64,000 nt of DNA from Schmidtea polychroa (lineage: Eukaryota), in NCBI GenBank assembly GCA_044892525.1, contig CM097885.1, forward strand, positions 24,306,001 through 24,370,000. Direction: 5' to 3'. Shown one piece after another: positions 1 through 58,181 of the stretch. Position 1 is the first letter of the stretch, and the number at the start of each line of letters is the position of its first letter. Under the pieces are notes generated by a model that was not told the DNA's origin, did not search any database, and saw only the letters and a list, made by a program, of their open reading frames with translations. A program made the translations under genes and the position numbers.

Positions 1-940
1 TTAATTCACATGCATATAGAGCGTTTGACTCATTGTATTTCTGCTTTCGATGCAGAAAATCCAACATTTTGCGATTTACTTCCCTTTTGCTACCGAATGT
101 TTTTATTAAAAAATTCTTTATTGATTTCCATGTTTTTAGTTTTGTTGCATCACACTTTGCCTCTAAATATACATCTTGTGCACTTCCTCTTAAATATAAT
201 GGTATTCGCTCTCGTACGACTATGTCTGGCCAGTGACATATTGTAATATATACCTCGAATTCTTTTATAAACGTTTCTAGTTCATTAATATTCCCATCGA
301 ATGGTTCTCCTCGAAATCTTTCTCTAAGTTCTCCAACATTGACATTAACATGGTTTATCTCTGGTGTGTATGTCAACTCTGACCCATTCGGGTTGTTCAC
401 TTGGTTTCCGTCTAACATTATATCTCGACACGAACTTGTCATGCCTGAACTACTATCTTCCTTGTCTGTTGGTTTGATATCAGTTACCGGATATAATTCG
501 TTTCTTTTAATATCGTCGCTGTTTTCACCTTCGTTGGTTAAGCTGTCTGATTCAAATAATGTTTTCACTGGCGCTGGTTTCTTATTGATTCTTCTGTTTC
601 TCTTGGCTCTTTGTCTCTCTGCGTTTCCTAATAAACTAGAGCCTCCTTTACTCTGCAATCTCGTTCGATTGGCTTTTTTATCCATCTTTCTCGCTTTAAT
701 AATCTCTTTTGAATTTCACTGTGTTTCGTTGGCCAACGCTTTAATTTTCCTCTTGGTATTTAATTTGACTTTGTTTACCTTTCTTCTATCCTCGTTTGAT
801 TCTCTTGATTCCTTATTTGTTTTCTTTTGAATTTTTGATTTCTCTTTATTTCTCTTGAATTCTTGGCTTGTATTGACTTCCTTCTGACTTATTGATTGAC
901 TTATTCTAAAATAATTAACACTCCTAGTACATATCATAAT
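1..940 (-). pseudogene. Ty3/Gypsy gag N-terminal/capsid region (interrupted), runs off the window start
   Basis: Minus-strand translation gives a basic low-complexity leader, then ERFRGEPFDGNINELETFIKEFEVYITICHWPDIVVRERIPLYLRGSAQDVY, a retrotransposon Gag capsid pattern (F.G...F...W.D...YL.G.A). It contains stops/frameshifts and resembles the gag near 29000. Confidence 0.75.
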
Positions 941-3689: not shown

Positions 3690-5622
3690 ATTTAATTTGT
3701 GTGTTGCTTGTCTATTTATTTAACGGCTTTTGTGTATTTCATATGTCTATGTTCAACGTATGTTTTATACCTTTCGGTTGCTATTATGGAATTAGTTTTA
3801 CTAACATTCTACTAACTCACACTCGGCTGCAATTCATTTCATCATCTTCAATTTTTCTACATCTCCCTCAGGGAGGTACACTACTACTCTTTCTCTCATG
3901 TTTGCGTCACATACATTACAATCGCTTCAGTTTCAATGCACAATCTTGGCAATAACATAGATGTCCGCAAGGTACCATCATTATTTTTATCTCATTGCTT
4001 CTACACACACAACATTTGAATTCATTATCGATCGCCTCTCTTATCGCATCTTCAACCGTTTAAATTTTTATCTTTAATTCTTGCCATTTGATGTTAAATT
4101 TGGCCTTATCTAAACGTAAATTCTGAATCTGATATACTCTTTGAGTAGTTAATTCCACATTTGGTGTAGCAATTCTCATCATTATACACAATTCATCATC
4201 TACTGGTCTTGGTTTTAAGATCAGCCCTTCTTGAGTGTTTGCCAACTGCTCTGCTTTTCAATTCAATCTTTGTAGTGAGTTGTTAGTTAAATTTACGAAT
4301 TTTCAAGTTTCTTTATAATGTAGCCGGTTAATTCCATCAAGTTATACTTTATTAATTCAGCATTTTATTAAGTGTTCTTATTCCCCTTTAATTAGCTTAC
4401 CTCTACACATTTATTTCCTTATTCAAATTATGTAAGTTCAATAGCTGTTTTACCCTGTTAGTTTAGGCTCCCAATCCATTAAATGATGTTCCGCGCATTC
4501 TTATCCGTTCCATCTAGTTTATTATCTTAGTCTACATAACCCTTTTGATCCCAGCTTGTCCATAATTTTAGTCATTTTATCAAATACTCAATATACCCCT
4601 TTAATCTTTAACGTAGTTTTACATCTTCCCCCTATTTTTAATTAATTGCATCATCTATCTATTTCTATTTCGCAATTCACTGTTTTATGCTTTATCCCCT
4701 TTTTCTTTATACCGTTATTTTCTATTCCCCCCCTTTTCCCTATTTTTGAATTTTTTATTATTTTCTTATATCCAAAGTATTAGTTGTTTATATTTACAAT
4801 TTTTATTATTTTTGATTTTTATTTCATTTCTTACCCATCAACATTCTGTCCCATCAACACGGAACGCTCATACATTATTCTCATACCCAGTTTTATCGAT
4901 TTTCTATATTTACATAATTTAAAACATTTTATTCATCATGTACAACATTCAACATTCATTTTGATCATACACGCATATTCACACATCATGTCTAGTTATT
5001 TGAGAAAACAATCTTTCTTACTCTTGCATAAAGCATTTCATTTCCTGATCAAAAAACTGCTATGCATTCCCGTCTACTTACAGGTTCTTTACCAAGAAAG
5101 TTTAAATATCCCGGCTGAGCCCCCAAATTTGTATGGTGGGTTACTGATGATCAAATATTTTGCTCTTTAGTGCTGTTACCAGCGTAACCCAAGATACAAC
5201 ATTGTTTACCGCTTGATACCCGTTGAACGATCAACGTTGGTACTGTAGCAAGACGGTGAGTACTCGCAAAAAGTGAGCGCACTACTTGCACTGTAATTGT
5301 CGAGCACTCTAATGGGTTCACGGACTATCGTTAGAAGATGTATGTCCGATTTACGCAGGTCCCTTATTATAATCACTTCCTCAACTATGCCTATACAAAC
5401 TTTCTATCCTCAAACGATCATAAGTCATCAGGAATCATACATTACTCTATTAAAGCCTGTTCATACAACACCACATCTAAAATGTTTGAATATAAATTAA
5501 GTGAAACATAACCATAGTTTATTAAACAAACCTCAAGAAATTTTTGAGACTAATGAATTTAATTAGAAAATAAAAAAAAACTTAATAAACTGAAACAATA
5601 GAAATGATAAAGATAACATGCA
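3690..5622 (-). mobile_element. Candidate long (~1.9 kb) LTR of the Gypsy element
   Basis: Bounded on one side by the PBS-like motif. On the other side is a GGGGAA-TG junction resembling the GGGAA-TG junction at ~26525 that follows the second gag element. Boundaries are tentative and the partner LTR is not in the window. Confidence 0.45.
5160..5365 (-). ncRNA. Candidate conserved structured RNA module, copy A
   Basis: Homologous to 55453-55650 in blocks: GACCT, CTTCTA, AGTCCG.GAACCC, GCTCACTTTTTGC, GTACTC, TACCAA, TCAACGGGTAT.AAGCGG and TGGGTTACGCTGG. Stems covary between copies. Confidence 0.6.
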
Positions 5623-7659
5623 TTCCCCACGATAACCTGATCAAAAGAAAATTTCAATTTAGTTAAGTTAACTTACAACCTATTTTAACATAATCCAAAT
5701 ATCACTTGTAAATTATGGGTAATATTAATATATGAAGTTTAGATTCATTACAATCATAAAAGTTCTTATGAAGAGTAAATAATTCTAATCTACTTAAATT
5801 TTCAATTTATAATATTCCTCAAACGACCAAACTAACTCCGTAATATACTTGAATTCATTATGTTAAAATACTAGAACAAGTTGGTAACTAATAAATTAAA
5901 TAAAGTAATGGAATTTTGATTTCATTATTACTTTTTGTTTTGTTAAAGTTATTTAACATTATTTAAATTTTCGTTGTTTTATTATAGTAATTATAATTAA
6001 TGTTAAATAACAAATTTTGAATAAATATATGATTTTAGTTAACTTTGATATAATAATGTAAATAAATTAAAATTTTAAGCATTTATATCCTAAAATTTCA
6101 TAATATTTCAGGAATATCAGCATTTGGCCGAATCTCCGAACAATTACTATTGATCAATAATGTATTATGACATCTCGAATGAGCAAAGATCATTTGACAA
6201 CACCAATGAGAAAATTGTAATTAACTTCCTTAATTTAATTAATTAACTTCATTAATTTCCTTAGCAATCGAGTTGATAATAATTCAGTGAGGTACGAAGG
6301 TTTGATTGCCCCAAGGTCAGTTCCACCAACTAATCTTCCTGGCGGAATTATCTGACAATGACTACTCAAAAAGAGATGCAAGGAATATAGTTGGCCATCC
6401 AACAATATTACGTCAAATCAATATGTAAGTCATTGAACCAAAAGGAACGAAGCAGAAAATAAGGAATTATCCAGAAGTCTTCCAACTCCAGGAAATGTAT
6501 TTCATTGGGATGGTCCATCAACCGTGCTCGAAGGACCTTGGTATAACTATGATTCAAAGAAACAATTATATGAATAAAGTTGATGATCGAAATCAATAAA
6601 CTTAGTCTTTGTTTTTCTTTTTTTTTTGATCTAGTTAAAAATAAATTTAGTCTCTTTTGATTTAGTTAAAAATAAATCCAATAATTCTAATAAATCAATA
6701 AATGATTCTACTAAATTACTTCAGTAAACTACTCTAACCTCGCTCCATCACCTTAAGGGGGTTGTGACCATCACATAACAGGGGTCTTGAGGGGGAAGGT
6801 TATCGTATTTTTATAAGGTTGCTTTATAAATCTGTATGTACATACACACACACACATATATATACACACACATATATATATACATATACATATACACACA
6901 TACCTATATATGGATATAATTTAAATTAATAATATTGATGTCGTTTTCCGGGGGGGGGGTGTTACTAAAAATAGATTTTAGTGATTTTCCGTAATTTTAT
7001 TGGAAGATAGGGCCATTGAAACTAAATTTAGAGATAGGGGAATCCGAAAATCGATAATTTTGTTTAAAATTTTATTTTTATGAAATAATAATTACTTTAA
7101 TAATATAATCAGTTTAGTGGGGTTACTGGGGAAAATAAAATCAATGATATCAATAAAATGTAATAGTAGTACTAATGATAGTAGCAGTAATGTTAAAATA
7201 ACAATAATGATAAACGGCGAATGTACCTTGATATCTTTATGAAATTACCACGGGTATATAGCTTGGGGGTCATTTAGGAATTTTAAGAGTTATCATTTTA
7301 AAATCAAATATAAGATGAATATATACATATATATATAAGAGTAGTCTATCTTAGTGTAAATTTAGATAAATATATAATTTGAGGGGGGTCATTTAGGAAA
7401 TTTTACCACTTATATTTTTTATTATAATGTAAGTTAAATATATATTAAAATAAGCCAATTTAGTATGTATAAGTTTGAGGGGGGTACTCGTGAAAAAGGT
7501 AAGTTATACTTTTATAAGTTTCAAATATACATATATAAGTTAGATTATGAATCTGGACATTTGTTTCGACCATTACGTAACTTGGGGGGGGGGTATTTAT
7601 AAAATATTTACAACTTATTATAGATTATATTTTTATCGCTAACGTAGTTTATATTTTAT

Positions 7660-8430
7660 ACTTTTATGACCAAATTAAGATTATAATTTATAGTCTTTCA
7701 GCTAATATAAGTTTATAATTTATATTTTTATGAAGTTAAATTTATAGTTTATATTTCTAAAGCTAATATAATTTTATAATTTATACTTTTAAGTTTATAA
7801 TTTATATTTTAGGAAGTTAAGTTAAATTTATAGTTTATATTTTAAAGCTAATATAATTTTATAATTTATACTTTTAAGTTTATAATTTATATTTTATGAA
7901 GTTAAGTTAAATTTATAGTTTATATTTTAAAGCTAATATAATTTTATAATTTATATTTTTATGAAGTTAAATTTATAGTTTATATTTTAGAGCCCATATA
8001 ATTTTATAATTTATACTTTTAAGTTTATAATTTATATTTTATGAAGTTAAGTTAAATTTATAGTTTATATTTTAAAGCTAATATAATTTTATAATTTATA
8101 CTTTTAAGTTTATAATTTATATTTTATGAAGTTAAGTTAAATTTATAGTTTATATTTTAAAGCTAATATAATTTTATAATTTATATTTTTATGAAGTTAA
8201 ATTTATAGTTTATATTTTAGAGCCCATATAATTTTATAATTTATACTTTTAAGTCTATAATTTATATTTGGTGAAGTTCAATTTATAGTTTATATTTCCA
8301 AAGCTAATATAATTTTATAATTTATATTTTTATGAAGTTAAGATTATAATTTATAATTTTTATCGTCAATACAAATTTGTAATTTATAATTTCAAGAAAT
8401 TAAATTTATAATTTATACCTTTATAACTAA
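7660..8430. repeat. AT-rich satellite-like tandem array with higher-order structure
   Basis: Repeated TTTATA(A/G)TTTATA subunits. The variant AGCCCATATA recurs at 7991 and 8221, giving a 230-bp higher-order period. Confidence 0.9.
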
Positions 8431-9439
8431 TCGTAATTTACATTTTGAAGAAATTAAATCTATAAGTATAATTCACATTTTTATGAAATTGAGAGGATAA
8501 TTTATACTGTTATGGGTTTACGATTTGAATTTTTATAGTTAGTTTAGAGTCTATTCAATTTAAAATCCAAGTCTTGCTGATGCGCATGTCGAACACCTTT
8601 ATGAATACTATCACTACTAAATCAATCATTTTTAAAAAATCTTTACTTTACACTATTACTAGAAAATTTATTTAAGACATTTATAAATCTAGATTCGACA
8701 AACGTATAGGTAGAGTTGGTTCTTGATGATATTTAACCGTCTACATTAATTGTGAATTGTAGAGTTGTGATTAATTTAGGTCTGAGATCTACTCTGTTTA
8801 TCAACCTTAGTGTATTGTATTGTGATGATTTTGGATGTAGAGTTTAACTATGTAAATTATTCATGCATTGAAAGTCGGGAAGAGTGTTTGCTTTCGCGGC
8901 CCCACTGTGACCACTACGACAAACCTTACTGTTGTGTGGTAAGTCAACCCTTTACGGCTGACCTATAATAAATAGGTAGAGTCAGACGGAGGATTTCATC
9001 GACTTAACTCCATGGCAGAACCATGAAGTGGTGCGACCTCCGAATGACCTGAACAAAAAAAAAACAAATAATATTGATAAGTGCGTGCCAGGCAGTGGCC
9101 TGCAATCATTGTGGGCTGTTTAATCATCGATGATAAAGTGCATAGGTGCAGGGTTGGCTGGGATCTCGCTTCAAAATCAATGATAACCGACGATCTCACT
9201 CAAACCTACATTTCTATAGTTAAAAAGAAATAATGAAAACAAGCTTTCAATAATAATAATTTATAATTCACAATGAAATCGTCCTTACCTACAATCTCAG
9301 AGAAATCAAAACCAAAAATTTTGCATAAGAGTAAAAATATTCATTTGCATTTTTTTTTCCTAGCTTTTAAAGTGACGAAATGTGTTAGTTTATATAGCCT
9401 CTGTTTGACGTGTAAGTATACATGCGTGCATTGATGCAG

Positions 9440-9900
9440 TAAAACAAATTCAGATTATTTTAATTCTCGAACATTCGATTTTTAATTTTTATCGATTTTG
9501 ATGGCGATTTTTCAGTAAGAATTTTTGTTTTTATTTTTGAAATTTTATTTTCGAATTATTTTTTATTAAATTTGCCTCCATGATAGATTTCAGCATTTCC
9601 AGAACAGTCCATGCTAAATTTAATCTATTTCTTATTTTTAAATTGTTTTTTATGATTTCTTTTCTAAAATATTTATTTTTTAAACTAAAATATTTATTTT
9701 TTATAAATTTTATTGGGTCGTTTGGCCGTCATGATGGATTTCGCCATTTTTATGAATTGTTCTGGATTTTTATTCAAAATATCGATATAATTTTCTTTAC
9801 GTAAGATTTTATGAAGATTTTCTTTAATTTTCTTTTTTAATTTTTACTAATCGCCTTTATTCGAATTTGTTTTTTGTTGTTTTATGTCTTTCGGTTATAT
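9440..9900. repeat. Diverged dispersed repeat, homologous to ~12140-12500
   Basis: Shared blocks TTTTAATTCT..., TTTTTATC(G/A)ATTTTGATGGCGATTTTT and TTGGC..CATG occur in the same order and orientation in both places. Confidence 0.6.
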
Positions 9901-10577
9901 TTGAGTAAGTTTTCGTGTAATACTTCTTGCTCGTGTTTTATTTTATTTTTAATTCAGATGTTTTATTTTTGGGTATATTATCTCTCTATTATCATTGTTT
10001 ACTTGGTGTTTTATATATTTTTATTTAAGTAAACTTAATGCTGGGTATGCGTGTTGTGTACTGACACATTTCGTCCCATTCCCAACTTTGGGTCTAGAAA
10101 TCAGTTCTAGCCCAACAATAGTGACTGTAGTGAGACGTTAGACGGTCTCATCGTATTATATATAAACCTTATATGCAGAAATAGAACGTTGTTTTTCATT
10201 CACCGAAATTGGAAATTGTTCAGAATTATATTTTCGAAACCCACCAGATTAATATGTGACAGGGATATTTTCCAATACCCTACTGCGGATAATCTTTGCT
10301 ATGCATATTCGCAGCTGTGACTTTGAAAATGTGTCCAAAAAATCGGTAAACAAGCATTCGTCAATTCTTTCGTCGATTGTCACTTACTTGACTGCGTTGA
10401 ATCAAATGAACCTGGATAAAAATGTTTCCTTTTTTCTATCTCGTTGCCAGTCTCAGAGAGATAACCTCTCTCAATGTAACATCGATATTGTCAAAGACTT
10501 ATTCAATGCGAAATTAAATATTTATAGTTTTATAAGAACTTTTTTTCCAATTTCACCACTGATTATTTTTTCTATTG

Positions 10578-10781: not shown

Positions 10782-11019
10782 ATAGTTTTATTTCAACGAA
10801 TTAGTTTTGGACTAAGTGAATTTTGTTGAATCATTTTATACTCATGGAATCATAAGTTATGTTTATGTATAAAGTAATTTGTCTTACAAAAGAATTTCAC
10901 AATTTTTTCTTTACTTTTGTTATGAACAATTCTGATAAGGTTCATATGGTTCTGGTCAAAGTTAAATCGATTTAATAGTGGTAGATAATCGATAGATAAT
11001 TAATGCTGGAACTGTACAT

Positions 11020-11165
11020 AGTCAAGGAACCTGTGAGCTTCATTTCTAAAACTACTCTTCCTCATACTTCTTAAACGGATTCTAGACTGCCGATAGAATG
11101 GCTTACGTCGATGAAAATGCTTCTAAGAATACTATATTTTAACAACTCGGAAAACGAGGTCATTG
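11020..11165 (-). ncRNA. Candidate structured RNA module, copy B (degenerate)
   Basis: Plus strand ATGCTGGAACTGTAC...GTGAG...AACGGATTCTAGACTGCCGATAGAATGGCTTACGTC...CGAGGTC matches copy C block by block. Confidence 0.5.
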
Positions 11166-12582: not shown

Positions 12583-14949
12583 TGACATTATATGGTATTG
12601 TGGACATTTTTGTCAAAATTATTTTTTAAATGTAAATAACGCCTGAATACAAACTTAAGTTTGAAAAATTTTTCAATGTAAATTCTTCTTTTTTTTAAAT
12701 TAATAATTTGCCGCCTAATTTATTTTATGGTGTCATACAGATTTCTAGGTATAAAAAAATGCACGTTTACCGTAATGTGGACAAAAATGTCTATTATGAA
12801 ATTCCTGTTCAAACATGATTTGTTTTTACCTGTTTACAACAAACATATGATTTTTGATTTGACATATGTTTGCAACAAACATATGTTATTTGTTCTAAAT
12901 TATTATTTTGTGGGTTTTTTGTGCATTTATTTGCTATTCGTCAAGTAACTTGTACTGACCTTTGCTACGTCTAATTAGAATTTGTTATTTACACATTGCA
13001 TTGATACGATTACGAAGTTTGAGTCTAATATATTATATTTCAACTTATTTTTCTTCAAAAAAAAATCAAAATTATGACACATCAAAATTTAACCGATGAA
13101 GAAATTCAAGATTTAGTTTTTAGTAATAGCGAAGCTGATCCATCTGATGATGACCATGTTTTTATTGATAGCGAGTATTCGAGTTCTGATCAGGAAAGTT
13201 TAGGCGATGTAGATTCAAATAGTTTTTTATCGAAAGATAAGACAGTATTGTGGCATCAAAAACCTGTTAGCACCAATTTGGGTCGCAATCGAGCAGAAAA
13301 TATATTGAATATGACTCCGGGAATTACTAGGTATGCAGCTAGCCGAATCACTGATATAAACAGTGCATTCATGATATTTTTTCCGAAAGCAATTAAAAAT
13401 ATGATTTTGAAAAACTCAAACAGTGAAGGAAACACCGTTTTTGGAGATAGTTGGAAGGATTTGGATGCAACTGAACTTTATTCCTATTTTGGATGATTGA
13501 TTTTAGCGGGTGTTTATAAGTCAAAAAATGAAGCAACTGAAAGCTTATGGCATTAAACTACGGGTATTACGTGCAACCATGCCATTGAAAAGATTTCAAA
13601 ATATTTCAAAAAATTCTTAGATTTGATAAAAAAAAACCCGGTCAGAAAGACGTATGAATGACAAATTTGCGCCAATCCGAGAATTGTGGGATGCATGGAG
13701 TGAAAGGTTACCCATGTTTTATAATCCATCAGAGAATGTGACAGTTGATGAACAACTACTTGGTTTTCGTGGTCGATGTCCTTTTCGTCAATATATGAAA
13801 AGTAAACCTGCGAAATATGGATTAAATTTTAGATTGCAGCTTGCAGCAAGTCTGACTACGCTTGGAAAACACAGCCATATTTAGGAAAACAACCGGATGC
13901 TGCTCCCGAAATAAATCAAGGTATGAGAATTGTACTAGATTTAGTGAGGGGTCTCAAAGGTCACAACATAACACTCGACAATTTTTTCACATCATATCAG
14001 CTTGGTCAAAAACTCCTGGAAAAATCTATAACAATGGTGGGTACACTAAGAAAAAATAAACCAACAATCCCACCAGAAATTTTGAATACAAGATCTTTGC
14101 CACAATATACATCAAAATTTGTTTTTACAAAAGATACAACACTAGTATCTTATGTACCTAAAAAATATCGATGCGTAGTGATGCAAAGTACTCTACATTT
14201 GTCTGATGAAATTATAACTAATGAACCTCAACGTAAACCTGAAATTATCAAATATTATAATGCCACAAAAGGCGGAGTGGATACTTTAGATAAAATGATA
14301 TCCTGTTATTCTACAAAAAGAAAATCTAGAAGATGGTCATTCGTTGTTTTTTGCAATATGTTAGATATATCTGGTTACAATGCTTTCGTACTTTACAAGG
14401 AAGTTGATTTATCTTGGAATTATAATAGTTTGAGTAAGAGACGTTTATTTTTGGAAAAATTAGGTGATAGTTTGATAAAACCTCAAATGCTAAGCCGACA
14501 ACATTTACCTAGAGGACTTGCTGCGAGAAATATTATTCAGGAAGCTCAAAGCAACCAAGATAATGCTGGCGGATTTTCGAAGCCTACAGCTTCGAAAAGA
14601 GGCATGTGTTCTACTTGTCCTATCAGAACGGGGAAAACCATAATAAAATGTAATAAATGTAAAAATTATGTATGCAAAAACCATGTAAAATATATTTGTC
14701 CTGCTTGTCATAATAATTGAAAAATTAAAGAAATTTATTATGTTAAGTTCATTTTATATTATTTTGGTTAAAACTTTGAATAGTTTTTCGAATTTTTATT
14801 TTTGTTTTATATATTTGAATGTAAATAAAAAACTAATGAACTTAAAAAAATTTTTGTTTTTGTTACATTTTGATACAAAAATATATGGTAGACATTTTTG
14901 TCCTTAACGCGGTTAGCGTTGGTAGAAATGAATACCATTTGAAGGTTAA
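12583..14949 (+). mobile_element. piggyBac DNA transposon with disrupted transposase (13074-14720)
   Basis: DDD motifs VDEQL, TLDNFF and GGVDTLD; FRQYMKSKPAKYG; C-terminal Cys-rich domain. Right end ...AAGG-TTAA at 14945-14949. Subterminal GACATTTTTGTC repeats at ~12600, 12780 (inverted) and 14890. Stops/frameshifts present; left terminus degenerate. Confidence 0.92.
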
Positions 14950-16273
14950 TTATGCCTTACAATCTTACTGCATATTAAATAGTTTTCAGTTCAATAAAAT
15001 TATTTATTGAAAAAATTTATTCAATTGAGGAAAATAAAATTTTCCTAACTTATTCCTTAATATCTATATAATGTAGCTCTTCTCGCTATCCACACATGCT
15101 TTATATTTATATTGACAGACTTAATGGTCGTTTACAACGGGTAGGTCTTTATTTGAGGTTCGCAAGTGTTCTAATAACAATACACTGAGATCTATCCCAG
15201 TTGCATTCCATATTCAAAATGAAATAATTTCCGGTGCCTAATAAATTAAATCTAACACAAGAGCCAGATTTAGTTTGCCAACCTTGTTTATTAAAATTTG
15301 GAACAGTTTTTCTCAAAGAATCAATTGTTAAAAATAGAAAGAAAATAATCAAAATATACCATTGGATGAGAAATTTGACATTTTGTAAGTTACAAATTAA
15401 ATGTAAAAAAATAGCAGTTACAATAGATGGTTCAGAACCCTGATGGAATATAGTAATCAATGTGTATTGGTGTGTGTATGAGATTTTTCTTCATTATATT
15501 AACCTAGTATAAGAATAAATTATTAAGACGAGAAATCAACACTTCAATGTTTGAAACTAACAATGATTGACATCAAACAATGAGCCATAACTATAAGAAC
15601 AAGAAAAGACAATAATCACAGAAATAAGTGTATAATGAGAAAGTGGCATAATATCTTTTATCAACAGTCATGAACCCGAAAATAAAAATACACTGAGGAG
15701 TTAAAATGGAGTTCTAGTAATGGAAATCACCTGCTCATTGGTTTTCAACCCCTATGTACATTGTCAACATTGTTGTTAACATGGGTATGCAGGTGGCAGA
15801 AAAGATAATAGTCATGGAGATGTTTAAAGAAGAGCTGATGAAAAATTTATCAGAGGCCCAAGAGCATTTAAACAAAACATTTCCTTAGTGTCAATAGTTT
15901 TCACCTGCCTTTTTACTATCAATTTACCGTGGATTCTTTGACAACAAATGATAATATACTATGATCTTCCAATATCAAACTATTCTCGTTATAACATTTC
16001 AGTAAGTTCAGCTAAAGTTTTAACTAGTGCTAATTATATAAATATTTTTCACCATAGAGAATTGTGAACAATATAGTTTTATGTATAATCTTTATTATAA
16101 AACGTAAAACCGAAAATTTTCATTTTGATCAAACGAAGTAAAAAAATAGAATTTATTATTTATATTTTAACACATTCAACATTAGTTTTAAAAAAGTTTT
16201 TTGAAAATAGATAAATAATTCTTGTTTAAATATATTTATAATATTTCTATAAAAGAGGCGATTAAGAACAAAG

Positions 16274-19200
16274 ATGAATGAAAGTAAATTTTTTAATTTT
16301 ATTTTCCATTAATCTATTTGATTTATAGAATTAAATTCGATTTTGTTATTTAATAAGTAAATATTTATAGTTTTTTATAATTGATTTTGATTTATAATTA
16401 TTTAGAATTGAGAAATCCGTTTTAAAAACACCCAGGTAACACTGTAATCTGAATATATGTTATAATTGATATTTTAAGTCTTAAGCGACGACGAAGTTTA
16501 AAATCTATCAAGTTTGCTAAATGTTGTCTAGGAGCAAATTTAAAACCTAAAACTCAATATATTGGAGATAGGTTAACAATATTCTATTATTTAATGCAAA
16601 TAATAATAATTTCCCCATTTAGAATAATGGCACACAGAGGCGTTATGAATTTTGAAAATATTGAAATTGGTTTATATAGAAATTCAATCGATACTAATTC
16701 AAATTATCAAGAACTATCTATTCCAAATTTAATTGAAAAAACAATGAGACCATCTCGGAAACGATTGTTAAAATTAAGTATTCACCATGAGTCACCTTCA
16801 TCAGATGAGAAGCTACAACAATTAATTTCCCAAAGCCAAACTATCAAACGGAAATTCAATCGACACATATCAATTGTAAGAATAAGTTTACTTTTTTAAA
16901 ACTTGTATTACGATTTTTTATTTTAATTTAAATTTTTTTGAATGTAATAATAATTGTTTTCATCAGCCCTCCCACACCATTTACCGATCTCACCACGGTT
17001 ATATAATGAATTACTATTTTTGATGATCAATTTGACTTTCTCAATACAAATTGACGCTAAACTCCACTTTCGCATCAAGAAATCTTTTTTTTCAAGTCTT
17101 TAAAGACATACCATCACGAATTCGAAATTTTGAGGGCATTTCATAATTAGTCAAGGATTATAATATGAAAATTGAGATAGAATGTTTCTAAAGAAAAACA
17201 AATTCTCCATGAAAAATACTGGAGTTATTCAATTAGCCAATAAAAAATTTGGAATTATTTGATTGGCCGGTAGGAAATTCCGGTATTTTAGGCAGGAAAT
17301 CAAAGCAATTTTTCACAAATACAGAAAACTTAATCAATTAAATATTGCTCAATTTTATTTATGGTGTTTTTTGTCAGTTTTCTAATAATATACTCCCAGG
17401 ATTTGGATCAGGAACCGGAGCTTAGGAATTAAACCCAATCTGGCTCCGGTTTCGATATTTTATATGTATTTTTTAACAAAAATATTTACTTCTAAAAGAC
17501 AAAATCAACTATACGGATATTTTATCAAATTAGCCAGTTTGAAACTATAGCAACAGTTACGATAACCCTTGGTGATGTTTTATTTTTTAACACCTTCAAA
17601 ATACTCACCAATGTCGGTATGAATTTAGAAAATGCCCATAACGTCATGGAATCGCATTTCAGGTATGTATTCACCGTGATAACTATCATTCTTCTCATTA
17701 CCGCGGTTTCGAAGTTGGAGCTGGAACCGAAACATCATGAATATAGACACTTTAACCTTCGTTTCACCAAGCTCATTGACCTCCCAGAATCGCTGGAGTT
17801 GATGTTCCAGCTCTTTCTAACTTGAAAACCTCGTATTGGAACTTCTAACTCTAACTATTTCCAATCCACCAATACAAGTCCATCCTTTGACCTGATCGTA
17901 TCAGTACATATGTTATGGATGGAAATTTTATTCCTTTTACATGATTCCATCCAATTTTGATCATTCTTTAGTTTATCTCTCTTAAACTATGAGCAACCTA
18001 TGCTACTCCCATTACATTTGATCTTTCACAAACACCCTAATCGACACTCCACAAGTTTAATATTCCTGACTACCACATTTTCAATAATAATCATTAAAAC
18101 TAACACGCTATTTTCAAATATATCAGAACATCATCTAAATATGCAGCAACACCGTTATACAAAATATAATCAAACAGTATGTGCATAAGTCTTTGGAAAG
18201 TTGCTGGAATTGTGGATAATCCAAATGGCATTTGATTGTAACAGAACTGTCCTTTCTTTATAGAAAACGCTTCATCCACATGTACCTGATAATATGCCTG
18301 CCCCAAGTCTAGGGACGAAAAAACTGAAGATCCAGACAGAGAATCGAATATTGTTTGGGGATCTGCCGTTGGAAAAGTGAATTTTTCAGTAACTTCATTA
18401 GCCTTCCTAAAATCTTGACACATCCTGATTGATCCGTCTTTCTTACCTACCACGACCGCAGGTGAGTTCCATGGGCTTTGACATTTCCCGATAATGCCCA
18501 TTTTCAATAATTTCATAATCATATCGTCCACTTTTAATTCCATCTTTATAGCCATGCGCCTAAGATTTTGAATAATGGGATTTCCAGACGTTTTCATAGT
18601 ATGATTAGTACAACCTATATCAAAATCTGATTCCATGAAGATCGTACTATACATGGTTACCAACTGCACCAGTTTGGGTCTGAATTTGGTCCAAAAACAT
18701 CCAGCGCTTTTTGACATCGTTCGGTATCACTGTAGCTAACACCAACCGTATCTGAATCAGGCATTATGCTCTTTTTCCATAATCCCCAGTGTTTCATGTA
18801 CTACCACCATGCATTTACATTTACAAACACGCCTTTACTTTTCAATAAAACAGGAATCGTTCTTAAACTATAGAAACTTGTTCCGATCTTCCACAGTATT
18901 TGCTCTAAATTCGTCAAAAGGACTTGTTTCCTAGTAACCCAGTCTAAAATGCAGGTAAACCTTCGCATATTTCACACAAAAATTAAAAGATGTTAACCAT
19001 GTTTCATATTCAAACAGTTTGTTTTATTTTTGGCTTAGTAACCTTCGCTTCACTCCAAAATGTTAACATAATGCACATTTAATTGGCATAAAATTTGCGT
19101 TTATAACCAGTGTTCTAGGAAATGAGTCTTTATTGTTTTTTTTATAAAGAAATAACAAAATGAATCTCCTAAATTTTTAAGCATCCTGAAAGAGTATTAG

Positions 19201-22200
19201 ACGCTCCAGAAGTGTCTTTAGAACATCCTAACATTATGGATTGGAGTAAACAAAACATTATCGCAGTAGCTTTAGGATCTGCTGTTTATTTGTGGGATGC
19301 AATTGCAATTGAAGTTGAAGAAATTATGAATTATGGTTCAGCGAGTCCGTTGAGTATTAGCTGTGTTAAATGGTTTCATGGCACGCAATATAAATCTGAT
19401 CACATTCTAGCCCTTGGTAGTACTGACGGTTCTATAATATTATGGGATTCCAAAAGGAAAACAAAAATACGAAAGATGTATTCTTCTGATCGCTACCATC
19501 GATCTGAAGTGATATCTCTTGCTATCAAAAACAATATCTTGTCAATAGGTAGATCTTGTGGTAAATTGGAGCATTATGATATTAGGCAGAACTCTAATCA
19601 TGTTCCAGATTGGAATAATAATCAGGTTTGGTTATTTTAGTAATATAATACTTCTTAAATGATTTTAATTATAAATATATATATATATTAATGAAAGCTC
19701 TGATGAAATTCATGTTAAATAAATAAAAATATTGATCTATAATAAATATAATTTTAATGATTTCAATTTCTACTCAAATTCAATTATAATTAAAACATTG
19801 ATTTGATAATATTAAAATGCAAAAATTTCGGTATTTATGTTTGAAAAATTCAATTTTCTTTATTGATAAAATTCCAGCGGGAAATTTGATTAAAACTTGA
19901 TTAAAAAAATTATTTATATTCTTCTGTGCGATTTACCGTTGATTTCGGGTTCAGTGAGTTTATAAATAGCAGCATACAATTCAAGTGCAATTTATATAGA
20001 TTCACCTTGCATCAACATTTTAAATTTTATTCTATCCCGTTGTGTTATAGCTATAGACAGAGAGTACTGATATTGATGTAAGTAGCTATAATACATTCCT
20101 GAGAATTTGTGACTGGATTTAAGATCCGTGGAATTATTGTTTATATCTGAAGTTAAACTTGACTGGCTATCTTCAAAACTTTCTTTCACAGAGGATAAAA
20201 TAATCAATCAGCAAACAAGGGAAAACGAAATTAATGTATCAATTATCCGCCAACAAAAGTTAATTGTGATTTGAAAATTTGAAACACGTGTAGAAAGACC
20301 AAGTGAACATAATACATTCAGTATATATTTAAATAATAAATTTTCCCCCGAAGGGTTGTTAACAGTAGAAACAAATGTTTTTTCAAAAGTATTCAGATAT
20401 ATCCGGATCTTGCATCTAAATGATTAATCATCTAAGAACATGTAACTGGATTCAAATCGGCAGTTTTAACATATAATAAAACATATTAACGTTTCTATTT
20501 TCCCTAACATCTTCAATTGTATGTTTTTTAAACATTTTTTATTAATGAATTTAGGTATTAAATTTTAATTGTTTTGATATTTTTTATTGGCATCAATCTC
20601 GATTGAGAAATATTGATTATTTTATTTTAAAATTGAAAATCAATAACTTTAAAAACATTATTTATTATTTTAAGTCATTTCTATTTGTCAAAAAGCTAGA
20701 GATCTTTTGAGCCATATTGCTAAGAACTAAGAATTTTGAAATCTGTAATTTCTAGAAAGTCCATATATTGTTTTGTAGGGGATTCAACTCTATTAAATTA
20801 TCGAGATTATTTAGACCACTGGAAAAATCGGTAATAATTCAAAATCCCTTTTCAGGGAATTTAATTTTGCAAACCCATAAATTTATTAAAATTATTTAAG
20901 CGCTGTTTTTAAATACTTGCCAAAATTCAAAATGTTTAAGAAACTGGAATTGAAAAAATTGATAATTAAAATTTGTAAAGTCTATGTGCAAATCAATCTG
21001 AAGTGCAATAGCATTAATTAATTAATGAAATTCATAATTTTCTTTATAAAACAATGAGTAACCATGAAAAAACTTCGGTTCTTTTAAAATGTTTTTCACT
21101 GATCATTTTCTTAAATTGGTAAAATTGACTAGTAATATTGAAGACCTTGAAAAAACATGTGTATGAATTGTGCAAGGTTTTTTGATAGTGTTACACTTCG
21201 CCAAAATAAATCTGAATGTCCTATCTTTGATAGTCGTATGAGGCATAAAGGAAAATATAATTCTACTATAAAAAATATTGTTGTAAATACTAGTATCCCA
21301 GGTTGAATGAAAGTGAATTTAAAATATGCTCCAAAAGGACTTCTAATACTTTCTGATGATCAAATTGGTCAATTTAAAGACTTTAAGGTTACTCCGAAGT
21401 TTTTAAGGTCGAATAAAGTAGACACTGGTGATTCGCAGTATGGTATTTTAAATGTATTTTTCGCAACGTCAGACCTGTCATATTTACTTCAATATAATCA
21501 GATATAGACAGAAAAAAATTTCCCATGCGATGGCCTTATCAGAAATTTTGTAGTTTGTTCAATGAACTTTGAATTTGATAGAATTAGATTTTCGAGCATC
21601 CACGAATACGGTTAATGTAAAAATTCGTTCACAATTTTATGCCATGAATTTAATGTGTTAATCTTTATTAATGGGAGATTTCTTATATTTGTCGTCTCTA
21701 AAATTTGTCTATACACTTCTAAGATATGTGACTAAATGAAGTTCTCAACTATTATTTCAAGCCGGTTAGTCAAAGAAAAACAGCGCCATGGACAGTCACT
21801 TGAGATCTATAAAAGATAGAGTAAATACTTTAACGAAATTAGATAGGTTATCAATAATTCGATTTTCAGAAAATATTGAAATAAAAATGTCATGTCGATT
21901 AAAATTAAAAAACATCAATTAATTATAGAATAGGATTATTTAACGTTTTTATTTTTAACGTTTTATGTTCAACTGAAAACATTTCCCAAATGTAGTTTTT
22001 AAAAGCAACATTTCAAATCAATAAAGTAAAAGAAATTATATAATCACATAATTTTTAAATTACATACATAATTAAGACATTATTTGAACATCACTTATAC
22101 GATATAATTTTTCCAAATTTTGTTGAAAAAAATGTCCAAAATAAATGACCCGCTATAAGCCGACCTATTAAAAATGAAATTCTCTTATTTGCTTTTCATC

Positions 22201-23746
22201 GACACCAAATTCACGAGCTGCTGCACAATTGTTGTTAGCATTTGCAAACCTAACATGAATAATTACACGATTAAACTTTTGACTTAATTCTATAGCAGTT
22301 GTAAAAGAAATGTTATGGTAAATCGAATGAATTATGGATCATTCGATAGTAAAATCAATTTTCAGATAATATTGAAATAGAAATGTTATGTCGATTAAAA
22401 TTAAAAAAAACATCAATTAATTATATAATAGGATTATTTACAGCCATACCGTTTTATGTTCAACTGAAAACATTTCCCAAATGTAGTTTTTAAAAAGCAA
22501 CATTTCAAATCAATAAAATAAAAGAAATTATATTATCACCTAATTTTTAAATTACATACATAACTAAGACATTATTTGAACATCACTTATACGATATAAT
22601 TTGACAGGCAGAAAAGGTATCAACAGGTAGAAAAGAAAAATTAATAGATTTAACATTGATTATTAAAAATAAAATAATCAAAAATAACTTATTTTTATTA
22701 TAAAAACTTTTTTTTCAAATTTCACTACCACTGGTTTCTTTTCCATTGTATTTATTTGAAAATATAATTTCAAAAAAATTATGTGCTATATATACTTGCA
22801 TAGAAACCGACCCTCCAAATTTTGTTGAAAAAATGTCCAAAATAGATGACCCGCCTATAAGCCGACCTATTAAAAATGAAATTCTCTTATTTGCTTTTCA
22901 TCGACACCAAATTCACGAGCTGCTGCACATTTGTTAGCTATTGCAAACCCAACATGAATAATTAAACTTTTGACTTAATTCTATAGCAGTTGTAAAAGAA
23001 ATCGAATAAATTATGCATCATTCAATAGTAAAATCGAATTTCAGATAATATTGAAATAAAAATATTAAAATGTCGATTAATTAAGGGCAAACATAATAAT
23101 TTTATAATTTATTCATTTGATTTCTTCAGACCATTCTTCACCTAAAATGGTCTCTCGATTTCCATTATCTTGCAGTAGTAGCACAAGATTCTCATTTGTC
23201 ATTCTGGACAGAGAATAAACTCTATTCGTCACCTTTGATTTTGTTTAATGACAAAATCAATGATGTGGCCTGGAGTCATAGAGATGCGCATATTTTCCTG
23301 TGTTGCACTGCATGCGAGAAAGGCGAATTAAAACTCTACAACATTTCTCAAAGGATTTGTCTACGAACAATAAGCACAGATAGCAGTGTAATTTTAGCTT
23401 TCTTTCCCTTCTCTTATTGGAGTTATCGGCTTGTTCTTTATTCTAGATATCGTGCCTTCTGTGGAGTGACATCTATGAGGAGGTGGCGATTATTTCCGAG
23501 GATAAGGATAGTTTTCGAATTAGGATATTGCACGATGATAGCTTGCAACCGATTATCGAATTAACTGGTCATATAAAATCAATTTTATGCATGGCTTCTA
23601 ACCCTACCGGGGAAGTTATTGCAACCATTGGTGAGGATGAACAAATCAGACTTTGGAATTGTTTCCAGTGTCCAGATGTGAAAAAATTGAAAAATAATAG
23701 AAATCAAAAATCTAGTTTATTAAAGGATTTAGAGAGATTTCGTTGA
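16274..23746 (+). CDS. CDC20: Divergent CDC20/Fizzy-family APC/C activator (WD40), paralog A, multi-exon
   Basis: Spliced model reads MNEKLNS...GD|RIMAHRGVMNFE (C-box variant), HPERVLDAPEV..NIMDWSKQNIIAVALGSAVYLWDA, LKWSLDFHYLA, ELTGHIKSILCMASNPTGEVIATIGEDEQIRLWNCF, ending ...LERFR*. TATA at ~16248. Large TE-filled introns at 16876-19180 and 19626-23129. Confidence 0.88.
16960..19070 (-). mobile_element. Degenerate Ty3/Gypsy element in a CDC20-A intron; RT fragment 18100-18717
   Basis: SPWNSPAVVVGKKDGSIRMCQDFRKAN, FSSLDLGQAYYQ, MPFGL, FQRLM and YLDDVLIY. A PPT-like GGGAGGG lies near 16970 and a CA-TTT-TGG PBS-like junction near 19060; these boundaries are tentative. Confidence 0.85.
21857..23082. 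repeat. Local tandem duplication (~490-bp unit) within a CDC20-A intron
   Basis: 21857-22110 repeats at 22352-22600, and 22113-22400 repeats at 22815-23082 (CCAAATTTTGTTGAAAAAATGTCCAAAATA...ATAAGCCGACCTATT). Confidence 0.9.
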
Positions 23747-25332: not shown

Positions 25333-26090
25333 ACAGTAAGCCCTAGAATAACACGGTTAATCGGCACTGGCGTATTCGAAACTAATCGTGTTATTTGAAA
25401 CTAGGAATAAGGAAAATACAAAGTTGGAAATCAGCAGAAGTTTTATTACACATTTTATAAAAATGAAAATAACAATTAATGAACATTAACTATAAACGAA
25501 TAAATTATTTATTAAACTACAAACGCAACGTTTCCTTCAATTTAACATTCCAACATAGAGGTTCACTTTCTTTTAATATGATCATTTCCTAGAGCTCCTT
25601 TAGTAACCTAAAGATCCAATCCGTGCGTGATAAAAAGATAGCATAGAAGTTATAAAGTCAACCTAATAAGATAAATATTATTAATCACTGTCATTATCCA
25701 AACGTCGTAATCTTTTTTTGAATAAGAGGAAAGTTGTCATCACTTGAGTTATTTTCGTTAGTAACATCATTGTTGTTGGAAAATGACGATTCATTGTTTT
25801 GTGATGCATTGTTATCTATGTTGTTTGGGAATTTCCCAAAGGATTATCGCAAAGTGTTATTGCAGGGTTGTTGCAATTTTTTACCGTGTTACTTGAAAAT
25901 TCGTGTAATTCACTTTTTTCTGACAGATAGATAAAGTTTCAGGCATCTTTAAATTTTTGGAACAGAGTTAGGTTGGTTATATTAGAAAATTTGAAAACTA
26001 ATATTTCGCCCTTCAAGCTCAAGAATTTCACCCTTATGTTGGCACTTACGAAAAAACAGTAAAAAATGAAAGATAGTTGAAGTTATAGGT
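25333..26090 (-). mobile_element. Probable pogo/Tigger-type (Tc1/mariner) element end
   Basis: TA-CAGTAAGCCCTAGAATAACACGG terminus typical of pogo-like TIRs. Minus-strand low-complexity tail ending KKRLRRLDNDSD*. Confidence 0.45.
25541..25677. repeat. Direct repeat of 26296-26431 (fragment of the retroelement LTR-like region)
   Basis: TTTAACATTCCAACAT.GAGGT...GATCATTTCCTAGAGC...AAAGATCCAATCCGTGCGTGATAAA.AGATAGCATAGAAGTTATAAAGTCAACC occurs in both. Confidence 0.92.
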
Positions 26091-26099
26091 TTGATAGTA

Positions 26100-26320
26100 A
26101 ATCCCTTGGGTCGTGAGCTTCCGTAAGCCACCGTATTACTATTTCAAAAACGGCTAAGTACCCCTAGTAATGGCAATGTTGGAACTGTACCAAGTCGTTG
26201 AAAGCTACAGAGCAGGTGAGGTCTGTGTTAAGACAACTCCCCCGTAGACCTTCTCAACGGATTCTTGACTGCCGATACGGGGTCTTACGTCAATATTTAA
26301 CATTCCAACATCGAGGTCCT
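26100..26320 (-). ncRNA. Candidate structured RNA module, copy C, just 3' of the gag-only ORF
   Basis: Sense stems TTGAC/GTCAA, AATCC/GGATT, CGTTGAGA/TTTCAACG, AGGTCT/AGACCT and GGTAC/GTACT, plus the conserved CTCAC and TACAGTTCCAA. Confidence 0.6.
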
Positions 26321-31096: not shown

Positions 31097-32941
31097 ATGA
31101 ATACTTCCAATAAAAAACGAATATCCGTGCGATTTGATGAAAATACTATTTCAAGGTGATTTAATTTAAAATATTTCTATTTAATTTTTTTTCAAATTCA
31201 GTCGCAGAGAGGAATCAAATAAAATACACAATGTGAAAACGAACAGGTAAGGATTTTTCATATTTTCATTATAATTATTTTTGTTTAGAAAATCTACTGA
31301 CATTTTGAGAAATCGCTTGAAAAGTGAATTTAAAAAAACTGTAAGAAATGCTAATAAAAATAATTACAAAGGCGACCGGTAAATTTTGTCTTTAAATTAT
31401 TAACTCTTACTTTTTAATAGGTTTTTTGCACATAGAGGTGCAATGAATTTTGACAAAGTTTACAATTCTCATATGTCTGATTTGGTATGTTTAGCTCACA
31501 CCGATGTAAATAGTTTAGATATAAGCGTGACAAAAAAACGTTCCAGAAAAATAAAATACAATTTAAATCAAAAGTCTCCCTCAAATCTTCAAAAGGTGGA
31601 TAATTTCATTAAAAGTGAAAATTCTAAATTTATGAAACTTAATAGAATTATTCCCACGGTAATATATATGATTTTTTATTTTCTAAAAATATCTTTCAAA
31701 GGTTCCAGAAAAAGTACTGGTGGTATTGAATGAGATTAGTGAAAATGAGGATAGTATATATGAGGATAGTGAAAACATAGTTGAACACATACAAACTTGT
31801 TGGCTTGAAAATGGTCTTTTAGCTATTGGACTTGATCATCGAGTATTTTTATGGAATGAGATATCGAATTGTTCCAGCAAAATACACCACTACACTAAAA
31901 GTTCTGGCAAACACATCTGTTCGTTAACTTGGGTTGGGTATGATGACACTAGAAATATCCCAAAGTTGGCAATAGGAAATAACGTTGGGGAATTGGAAAT
32001 AGTGGAAATAGATGAATTTTTTAAAGTTAGTGACACTTCAGTGGTATGTGAGAAAACTATCACACATAAAATCGTCATGAAAGACAATACTCTGATCTCG
32101 GCATTAGCATTTGCAAACAATATATTAACTATTGGATTGGAATCCGGCATTATCCAACATCATTCATTAGAATCGTTCTCCACTTCATTATCGAAAAACA
32201 AATATCATACAGAAGTCAGTGGAATATTACAAATTTTGATATTAATATTTGTAAAATAGGAAATTCATAAAATGGTCTGGTCGGTGGATAAAATCCATTT
32301 GGCAGTAATTTCGAAAGGTGGTATTTTAACCGTTTGGGATTCTAACTACCTCAATAAGAAACCGGTGATAAAATTGCACGATAAGAATGAAAGAATTAAT
32401 GATATTTCATGGAATCCCAAAAATTCGAAGCAATTAGTATATTGCAGTGGGAAAAACGATTGCCAACTGAAGATAATTGATGTAAAGTTAAAGCAATTTA
32501 TAAAATCAGTTAATACAGATCAAAGAGTAAATTTTATCAATTATAATATTGATTATAATTCAATATTATTTATTAATATAGTTGAGGTTTATATATTGGA
32601 GCAAGGTTGAGAATGAAATCATTTGCGTTGCCAAACCACAGATACCTAATCCTATCACAGATGAGTCTATTCATGAGGATTTGGATTATTCTAAAATTAT
32701 TCTTTTTAATCAGAAAACTCTTATGAAAATTTCAGAAATAAAATGTATGTCTAGATTTGAACATTTATATTGTGTTTTAAAAATATTTAATATAGGTAAC
32801 GAAAATCAGTACGGATTGACTAGCAATGGTAATGGAGATCAGGTTGTCACAGTTGGAAGACATGGTGAAATTAGAGTTTGGAAATTATTTCCTATCAAGA
32901 AATCACAACCAATGATGGATTTTTATTCGAATTTGAGATAA
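31097..32941 (+). CDS. CDC20: Divergent CDC20/Fizzy-family APC/C activator (WD40), paralog B, compact 8-exon gene
   Basis: GDR|FFAHRGAMNFD C-box variant split by an intron at the same site as in paralog A; PEKVLVVL; LLAIGLDHRVFLWN; WD40 repeats; VVTVGRHGEIRVWKLF; C-terminal ...FYSNLR*. Introns are ~40-55 nt. Confidence 0.82.
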
Positions 32942-52500: not shown

Positions 52501-54644
52501 TAAAATTGAAAAAAACAATAATATTAATCAAATATTGAAGTTTTTAACTAATTAGTAATTTTTATGGGTTAGTTAAACAAAATCCCACATTAATTAAAAT
52601 TATTCTCAATATTTTATCATATGATTTTTTGTATTAAGAATAACTTAGACAATTTATAAAACATATTCCAACTATTAGTTACTTAAAATTATAATTTAAT
52701 TATATTTCCTTATTTTCACATACTATTTTATCAATTCCTAAAATATTGATATTTACAGCATTTCATTTATTTTCAAAATAGATTGTAGATAAAATCTTGT
52801 GTTACACAGAGCCAAAACATTTTTGATCTCTGGTCATAATGAAATGCTTAAAGAAAACAAAACAGTTCAACGATGGACAAAAAATAAAGGAATTTAATAG
52901 TAAATAACAGCACCTTATTTCATTTAAATTTATTCATATGTAAGTAGCTGAAATAAATATCATGAAATAAATACATGGTCATAGTGGGTAATTTAATCTT
53001 TATAATTTGAAATTTTAGGTTTAATTTCCAATGAAGACGAAATGTGTTTGTATCATAACGAATTCATAATTTCAATTAAATATTAGAATTAATTACTTTA
53101 ATTTATATTGAAGGCAGTATCCAAGTTGTTTGAATATTCATTGAGAATTAACAGTTTTTATAATTCAATTTAATAAACATTAGACTTGTTAAATTGTTGT
53201 TATTAGTTGGTTATTACCGAACTTTGAACTCTTAATAAGTTTAGGCTTATGATAATTTAAGTTTAATTTTTATTGTAATTTCCGTTATTCAAAAAATCCA
53301 TCACATTCATTTAGGAAAACGTCCATCAGTCTGATATCATCGCCATGGTCGCGTTCAATATGATACAATAGAATAGCCAGCTCAGCCTCAAAATTTATAT
53401 TTTAAAATTAAGTTTCAATAATATTTACTTTTGATTTTCTTTTTACTTCTCATATTTCTGCCTGTGTATTGATTCTATGTACGCACCTTCATTTTGGTAA
53501 TTAGAAATTATTTCCTTGACTTTCGCATGTATTTGAGAAGATTACCGAAAAATCTTTGTAATCACAAAACATTCATTTATACCAACAGATGGGTCTCGTG
53601 GAGCTTTTGACTGTTAGTGGGTTACAAAAAAACGTTAAGTACACCCTTCTAATGTATCCAGTACAACTTCTAAATAAAAACATTTGATGTCAGTTGTATA
53701 AACAACTGTTAAATGCCAGATAAAAAGTGGGCGAGCTTATGGTGAATCATGATTGCCCTGAATCCTCATGGGTTCACGAATTTTCGTTTGAATTATGGTC
53801 CCTATTCGTGAAAACTATTGTTATAAATTTTACGAAATCCAATCACTGACAAAAACAATACATAATTTACAATCAAATTGATGCCAGAAATGGGATTTTT
53901 ATTGGATTTATCGTCGAAGGAATTGAAGAAATCGAATGATAAAATATATATTAATTGAAGAGCAATTAAAGCGATTTCGCAGTTGACTTGCTTACCAAAA
54001 TAATGTATTGTCATATTAACATCAAGTATTTGGAAAAGATTTATTCATTACAGCTTTACCTAAGTAAAAAAATCAGGCTCCTAAAAACTAAAATGATCTC
54101 AACTCTTCTGAAAATATTTTAAAAGTTACCCTTGGTTTTAATTAGGCAATTAAGGCTGAACAAAATAGAAAAGCATTCCGGACATTGAGTTTTTGTAGCT
54201 TCAATACATATGACAAATAGGCGATATCTTGCTCAGTTGAATTAATTAATTCATTAATTTTGTGAAATATTCGGATAACAAGGTTAACTTCCATAGGATT
54301 CTTCGTGTTAGAATAAAGATATTTTTACGACAATGTTTTGCTTACCAGAATCATTTAATAATGATAAAGACACAAAAATGATATTTTAGATTCGTATTTG
54401 AACGTCAAAGTTAGTTGATATTTCTACAAATATTAATCCTCAATTACATATTGTTGAAATTGAACAAAATGAAATTTATAATAATGAAACTAAACTGTAC
54501 TTTATTGTTGACGCTTACGGGGTGTGTCATCTAAATGTTCTAGGGTTGCTTATCGCTCTGGCATCTACTCTTCTCTAATCGCTTTCATGATTTTTTTACT
54601 TTTGACAATCTGTGTTCCCATGTTAAAAACTATGTTGTTAATGT

Positions 54645-58180: not shown

Positions 58181-58181
<1 letters not shown>

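Follow-up and report, generated by a model that had tools for sequence, protein, structure and literature searches.

A predicted four-domain RNA module at the LTR ends of Burro-type Gypsy retrotransposons in the Schmidtea polychroa genome

The long terminal repeats (LTRs) of Burro-type Gypsy retrotransposons in the Schmidtea polychroa genome end in a stretch of about 250 nt whose predicted fold is kept through compensating base changes. This structured RNA module is real and apparently undescribed, and it belongs to the known class of retroelement leaders made up of U5 and the primer-binding site (PBS). Its last helix is predicted to cross the LTR boundary and to enter an unusual spacer of 7–8 nt before the PBS, and this crossing would be the new feature presented here. 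We lean towards reading the module as a platform in the 5′ leader of the genomic RNA, where the tRNA primer would be docked and Gag and reverse transcriptase (RT) would be recognized.

To our knowledge, detailed RNA structures of the leader exist for just a few LTR retrotransposons, the majority of them yeast Ty elements. The module repeats one architecture across at least eight families with LTRs that otherwise do not align, and thus represents a ready natural alignment for structure probing. It offers a concrete explanation for the unusually long distance from the LTR end to the PBS, and it can be used as a handle for finding the estimated 16,000 LTR ends in a genome that is dominated by these elements. 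Combined with the lack of a polypurine tract, it opens the way in which env-bearing giant elements are primed to direct tests in vitro.

Distribution of the module in the window and in the genome

The analysis was started from a window of 64,000 nucleotides (G000:C1:24306001-24370000) of this AT-rich genome of 781 Mb. A first-pass annotation of the window had listed five homologous blocks, here copies A to E, and their coordinates, strands and homology proved correct: a profile HMM built from genome-wide copies of the module scores each of them at 75–138 bits and gives 0 matches on block-shuffled sequence. All five are present, and a sixth, decayed copy of the D family had been overlooked at 15629–15896 (+; 111–116 bits, HMM span 15641–15847). 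Copy A lies at the end of a 5′ LTR and stops 8 nt before the PBS; its parts from a GGACC motif through the spacer that follows the LTR cover 5126–5363 (−). Copy B (10999–11165, −; HMM positions 2–126) is truncated inside domain 3; copy C (26037–26320, −) closes with an LTR-type terminus (GTGCCAACA) that is not followed by a PBS, and its family homology extends to about 26,800; copy D (54506–54795, −) is a decayed LTR end, and copy E (55453–55682, +) is an LTR end with no PBS after it. Copies B–E are LTR ends without PBS, and solo or 3′ LTR copies such as these would be passive leftovers. By self-BLAST of the window A and E are the only pair linked (71% over 207 nt). The segment 25540–25677 is an 89% duplicate of the sequence immediately upstream of copy C and stops before domain 1.

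Copies A, B, C, D and E and three divergent copies served as genome queries, each with at least 40 scored matches; first-look candidates ranged from 94 to 2,454 per query, which are not copy numbers. The estimate of about 16,000 modules genome-wide (95% interval 6,500–33,000) comes from 7 modules found in 34 unselected stretches of 10 kb. After removal of near-duplicates, 177 copies were retained and grouped into eight families, with representatives that are 50–67% identical (A and E, 75%), and one locus (L316) holds a ninth type of module.

Rfam 15, which the first-pass annotation had named as the place where a known family might turn up, returned no family over the module: there was nothing at gathering score in the window, nothing at E≤10 over the module in eight loci or in copy A, and in copy H at E≤10 two chance-level matches (E 3.8 and 5.4), neither of them a ribozyme. 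Metagenome contigs were scanned twice for exact patterns, with 0 matches in one scan and 1 in the other, and this single match (L339) was rejected because it stands alone in an apparently bacterial coding sequence with the other domains missing; an exact-pattern scan of viral contigs gave 0 matches. RNA structure in Burro LTRs is undescribed in the literature searched, a search that lies outside the primary Burro paper (Grohme 2018) and its supplements. The assembled contigs of one sequencing run (X1, whose RNA origin is a guess) cover the module and the leader and, thinly, part of U3, and neither transcript ends nor levels can be read from such contigs.

Position in the LTR and host elements

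In copies traced to the LTR end, the module fills the last 230–300 nt or so of Burro-type Gypsy LTRs, directly before the PBS. The LTR-end motif lies 210–290 nt downstream in 104 of the 183 HMM hits, many of the others being truncated or decayed. Copy A occupies the last 230 nt of a 5′ LTR of 4,984 bp (5134–10117, −; TGTTGGG...CCCACCA; 99.9% identity to L151/L152). The 3′ LTR of the same element lies outside the window, 16.3 kb away at G000:C1:24294822-24299808, and is 99.9% identical; with a 4-bp target duplication (CTAT), element A is a young, gag-only, Burro-related element of 21.3 kb. Its LTR is followed by the 8-nt spacer, the PBS, a 4-kb leader and gag, whose ORF starts within the window (2–500, −) and continues beyond it, with matches to Retrotrans_gag (E=2.2e-6) and zf-CCHC (E=2.8e-10) in the continuation; this gag is 40–43% identical to Burro gag. 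Tandem repeats of about 140 bp (95% identical) are found at 1513–2446 in the leader of element A, upstream of gag.

These positions change the placement given before, in which the module was put just 3′ of gag in one element and in a U3-like part of the LTR in another. Its real place is the R/U5 end of the LTR beside the PBS, and copy A in particular occupies the 3′ (U5) terminus of its LTR. The ORF pieces beside copy C are gag-like by eye, as had been said, but have no Pfam match at E≤0.1, and compared by BLASTP with the gag of element A they reach only E=0.47.

An intact element of family H (30.4 kb, G000:C2:72066370-72096772) has LTRs of 4,169 bp that are 100% identical, and by Pfam it encodes gag, fusion glycoprotein, protease, RT, RNase H, integrase, ankyrin and MATH domains (L232/L233). 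This domain set matches the description of Burro/GYPSM1 in the available text of PMC6431247, and family H is also alike in its size of about 30 kb, long LTRs, polyprotein order and the presence of ankyrin and MATH; that part of the description covers protein domains and not LTR RNA structure, PBS spacing or a missing polypurine tract. The host of copy A differs from Burro/GYPSM1 in being a gag-only derivative, and in both element A and element D2 gag is present with no pol match. The LTRs of A, H and D2 (4,984, 4,169 and 1,644 bp) have no mutual blastn match at E≤1e-3 and all three end in the module, which therefore corresponds to the R/U5 end and not to U3. It was found in all eight families, in autonomous and gag-only elements alike.

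Two further observations were made on these elements. A 254-aa ORF with no Pfam match (L234:1143-1904, −) is present in both LTRs of the intact H element and stops about 280 nt before the module. At G000:C1:77.27-77.32 Mb, five LTR-PBS junctions spaced by 13.55 kb form a tandem array of a gag-only element.

Analysis of the fold

Four domains are predicted on the sense strand, backed by alignments that were made blind to structure. In copy A (all positions on the minus strand) the 5′ GGACC motif lies at 5356–5363, and its distance to domain 1 ranges from 23 to 72 nt across families. Domain 1 (5321–5348) consists of a stem, a bulge, a 3-bp stem and a loop of UYCYA type, and its basal stem of 3–5 bp is GAC/GUC, GAG/CUC or GG/CC depending on the family. 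Domain 2 (5258–5309) is a long stem with an apical hairpin and a CAC bulge that is invariant, together with a G.G mismatch in six families. Domain 3 (5208–5257) has a stem, an 8-nt ANNWCCAA bulge and an apical hairpin. Domain 4 (5129–5199) is the terminal helix, formed by 5199–5184 with 5144–5129, in which a GG(N)GUU segment pairs the LTR end and the helix enters the spacer.

The structure-blind alignment was made from the 177 copies, of which 36 were folded. The RNAalifold consensus reached −38.05 kcal/mol on the sense strand and −25.94 on the antisense strand; 200 null alignments simulated on a tree with independent columns had means of −17.4 and −12.3 and a best value of −33.7, all of them surpassed by the sense consensus. 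Between family majorities 19 of 37 pairs are two-sided (null maximum 6), and RNAalifold run on each family gave the same long hairpins in most families. The bias to the sense strand proposed earlier was confirmed, with 25 family-majority G-U pairs in sense against 4 in antisense and a z of −3.23 against −1.10 for copy A. In a MAFFT alignment of 33 copies (A2), RNAalifold predicted 26 pairs, 21 of them with two-sided changes. A 40-pair structure scored on A2 had 89.6% of its cells paired against 72.5% for shuffled and 35–42% for slid versions, the structure being drawn from the same sequences. Two-sided changes occur in 29 of its 40 pairs, and none of 500 shuffles reached any of these values.

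At the level of single pairs the result is different. An all-pairs G-test with APC on the 177 copies found no column pair above the family-wise 95% null threshold of 47.1; the best canonical pair reached 34.9 (E about 1.8). The two highest-scoring pairs do not base-pair and are markers of clades. With about eight clades such a test has little power, and the covariation proposed from the five blocks is therefore supported at the level of helices and not of individual pairs.

Several details of that earlier reading could be followed across the families. The motifs GACC and CTCAC are present in all five blocks; T(A/T)CCA, claimed for four, lies inside three of the five, and copy B has it just past the block edge. 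Support across families was obtained for the hairpin GCC/GGC that becomes ATC/GAT, for the apical stem and for the stem with TGATAC or TGGTAC. The closing helix AACCC/GGGTT fared worse, as it beats shuffles in 9 of 25 A/E copies and in 2 of 83 others, family I is without AACCC, and in A/E copies AACCC repeats the terminal sequence. Its supposed compensatory form AATCC/GGATT in copy C fails as well, AATCC being private to that copy (AACCC in its family) and GGATT standing at a non-homologous site. The TACCA/TGGTA pseudoknot fits family A only, other families having (C/T)ACCA against GGAA. In domain 1, most families could pair the UUC of the loop with the GAA that follows the stem, but no covariation was seen there, and UCC stands together with GAA in 8 of the 15 copies of family C. 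The idea of an undescribed cis-acting Gypsy RNA thus stands through helix covariation, sense bias and the absence of an Rfam match, and what falls is its placement, its closing helix and its pseudoknot.

Neither codon periodicity nor DNA factor sites, the two other causes of conservation considered earlier, explain the pattern. An open frame runs across the module in only 13 of 177 copies, and coding cannot account for the conservation. Conservation acting purely on DNA, either through CRE-like TGACGT and DPE-like GGACC sites or through the structure of minus-strand strong-stop DNA, would agree with the TGACGT seen in family D and partly in C and I, and with an antisense consensus that folds too. 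TGACGT is missing, however, in A, E, G and H, the GGACC spacing is far from constant, the compensatory changes and the excess of sense G-U pairs favour RNA of the sense strand, and the pairs that cross the boundary extend outside the LTR; we regard this explanation as very improbable.

Terminal helix, spacer and primer-binding site

In element A the spacer from the LTR-terminal CA to the PBS measures 8 nt (5126–5133, −; 7 nt in other families) and the PBS follows at 5108–5125 (−). The PBS is common to all families having a 5′ junction; its primer is presumably tRNA-Pro, and no tRNA-Pro gene was found in the 1.5 Mb of genome DNA searched. In 39 distinct 5′ junctions the spacer is TGATTTT (33), TACAAATT (5) or TGATTT (1). 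The PBS begins 7–8 nt (once 6) past the terminal CA in these junctions, and the 4-bp target duplications abut the CA. The usual loss at the cDNA end is two bases, and with this arrangement the cDNA end must lose more than that. Among nine candidate 5′ junctions of the B/C/D type two were true, after an earlier search had given 0, and junctions with a TAGGTT spacer were rejected, since they lead into flanking DNA and not into a PBS.

The helix across the boundary was first noticed in a chance Rfam alignment, in which the terminal stem of H passes the LTR end. Immediately 5′ of domain 4 stands a motif of 6 nt whose partner is the final base of the LTR together with the spacer, giving 5.82 of 6 pairs in 28 PBS junctions and 3.15 of 6 in 105 junctions with flank DNA under the same choice of best motif. 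The A-type motif TTGTAT makes 6 of 6 pairs with its own ATACAA and 3 of 6 with ATGATT; (A/G)TCAT-type motifs make 6 of 6 with ATGATT and 2 of 6 with ATACAA. This covariation contrasts two groups of families whose copies are not independent, and it may reflect one evolutionary event. When A, D2 and H are folded as single sequences, the boundary-crossing helix is seen in each, and in A it reaches the first bases of the PBS. Folded alone as single sequences, the terminal domain was only weakly better than shuffles (z −2.32, −1.50 and −0.46), and by duplex energies 56 of 108 copies have a terminal duplex within the LTR alone that is better than all 20 shuffles. As the partner in the spacer lies outside the LTR, the helix is possible only in RNA read through from the 5′ LTR, and this links the module with the leader of the genomic RNA.

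Domain 2 has a universal GCTCA (GGGGCTCA in H and I) that recurs within the PBS, so that the 3′ end of the primer could also pair with domain 2; the repetition may be due to chance.

Proposed function and alternatives

The location at R/U5 beside the PBS favours priming or packaging over a 3′ nuclease block. In the reading that we consider somewhat more probable than its negation, domain 4 would position the PBS and pace the start of minus-strand synthesis, as PBS stems of retroviruses do, and it would be the first template copied once the primer is in place. The invariant loops and bulges of domains 1–3 may bind the nucleocapsid part of Gag, RT or a host export factor, and packaging or export signals would thus stand upstream of the docking helix. 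Retention of the module in gag-only elements fits a cis signal that is read by proteins supplied in trans.

Related systems point in the same direction. According to the available text of PMC4974528, the structured 5′ end of Ty1 RNA controls priming and binds Gag; the module would likewise form a compactly folded 5′ region in the RNA of an LTR retrotransposon, tied to priming and Gag binding. As far as that text goes, Ty1 differs in being copia-type with a structure that runs into gag, whereas the module lies wholly in LTR and spacer, is kept across families that are mostly 50–67% identical and has no supported pseudoknot. In the accessible part of PMC1865047, initiation in HIV-1 relies on a stem of the U5-leader region and the PBS, and the accessible part of PMC3601003 reports conservation linked to stem-loops in LTRs generally, calls pairing of the LTR with neighbouring sequence of interest and cites the U5-IR of RSV. 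With these retroviral leaders the module shares its place at the end of U5, immediately 5′ of the PBS, and a conserved pairing of U5 with sequence outside the LTR. It differs from the stems described in these portions, as its helix pairs the 7–8-nt spacer 5′ of the PBS and not the leader 3′ of it, it has three conserved domains upstream of the helix, and there is no sequence similarity.

A natural deletion counts against the leader platform. Domains 1–3 are missing through a shared deletion, with domain 4 and the PBS kept, in two 5′ LTR loci that appear to be independent (94.5% identity, different flanks); of the three positions where this form occurs (G000:C1:9.25 Mb, C1:10.15 Mb and C3:16.71 Mb), those at C1:9.25 Mb and on C3 are near-identical over 13 kb and represent a duplication. 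No paired 3′ LTR was found for any of the three loci. Domains 1–3 may accordingly not be an absolute requirement in cis.

The alternative folds with and without the spacer could tell the two LTRs of an element apart, and the module might then be a switch between 5′ and 3′ LTR for RNA processing, in the manner of foamy viruses. The difference of the terminal helix between the two LTRs would suit such a switch, as would a donor-like GTAAG in 96 of 122 parsed copies of B, C, D, G, H and I and the intact element's ORFs after integrase (MATH/RING, 347-aa, and the 254-aa ORF in the LTR), which need a route of expression. The available part of PMC3694450 describes a hairpin with the splice donor in the foamy virus R region, which is similar in placing a donor motif in a structured LTR segment with a fold that differs between 5′ and 3′ LTR. 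In contrast to that description, GTAAG is missing in two families (0 of 27 parsed A/E copies), and family G has ATAAG instead in 8 of its 30 copies. The search for a downstream poly(A) signal was negative: in none of the families do at least 40% of copies have an A(A/T)TAAA in common in or after the module, and none lies within 1,300 nt of the LTR end of intact H. Domains 2 and 3 are also left unexplained, and we judge the switch, which is possible for six families but not for A/E, to be unlikely.

An element for export or translation in R/U5, similar to the CTE, RRE or RU5, would give domains 2 and 3 a role, as the G.G mismatch and CAC bulge of the former and the bulge of the latter might bind an export or helicase factor. 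Their internal loops are invariant in sequence within covarying stems, they may resemble the loops of CTE and RRE, and element A has its 4-kb leader ahead of gag. Against this stand the absence of an Rfam match and the docking of the last helix at the PBS, which such an element would not explain, and this role seems to us rather doubtful.

Retrozymes bear hammerhead ribozymes in their LTRs, and a self-cleaving ribozyme of a new class could similarly set one end of the element RNA; we hold this to be highly unlikely. A fold of several domains with invariant unpaired bases would be in keeping with it, and the hairpin of domain 1 appears by eye to resemble P3/L3 of HDV-like ribozymes, a likeness that adds to the shared place in a retroelement repeat. 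HDV-like ribozymes have a G at the sixth position of L3 (G25.U20); its equivalent is present in only 8 of 149 copies, and P1 and P2 can both be satisfied in 4 of 149. The hammerhead core CUGANGA...GAAA was found in 2 of 177 copies and no Rfam ribozyme matched even at E≤10. The ribozyme option of the first-pass annotation thus failed on both sets of features. The same cut in both LTRs would, moreover, be expected to abolish the R redundancy that an autonomous element needs.

The 3′ end of the elements may extend the leader platform to a second site of priming. Families A, H and D2 show no polypurine tract directly ahead of the 3′ LTR, where the longest purine run in the last 30 nt is 3–4 nt. 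A conserved AATTGCG-GGN-CGCAATT hairpin followed by GGG(C/T)CCC(C/G)GAG occupies this place (L152:1808-1850, −; L231:8538-8580, −; L338:690-729, +; also in L326 and L160). The hairpin loop can pair with the following motif as U.G in A, G-C in H and A-U in D2, a possible pseudoknot. In addition, the invariant CCAAC(A/G) of domain 3 (5235–5245, −) is complementary to the invariant LTR start TGTTGG (10111–10117), with no variation in either. These features could belong to an undescribed, two-ended form of priming by RNA structure, with the four-domain leader and its paired spacer at the 5′ end, an apparently covarying pseudoknot replacing the polypurine tract at the 3′ end, a bridge from CCAAC to the start of U3, and one of the folds possibly catalytic, cutting RNA to yield a primer or an end. 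We put this forward as a speculative reading with little likelihood at present.

Other features of the window and the genome

The window also carries other mobile and host sequences. Two CDC20/fizzy-like sets of WD40 exons were noted by eye at 19173–23564 and 31687–32259 (+), ORFs like a piggyBac transposase, also by eye, at 13029–14720 (+), and an isolated Gypsy RT fragment at 18100–18726 (−; RVT_1 E=2.7e-13). In the wider genome, a mir-753-like hairpin was seen at L004:2877-2938 (49.5 bits, under the gathering score), which together with the Burro-type elements points to planarian DNA, and 32 tRNA-Val(CAC) genes are arrayed within 10 kb at G000:C1:220.00-220.01 Mb (L241). At 56144–63125 of the window, inverted repeats of 605 bp (98.8%) surround DNA-polymerase-B-like ORFs (59894–62505) and form what looks, by eye, like the remnant of a Polinton.
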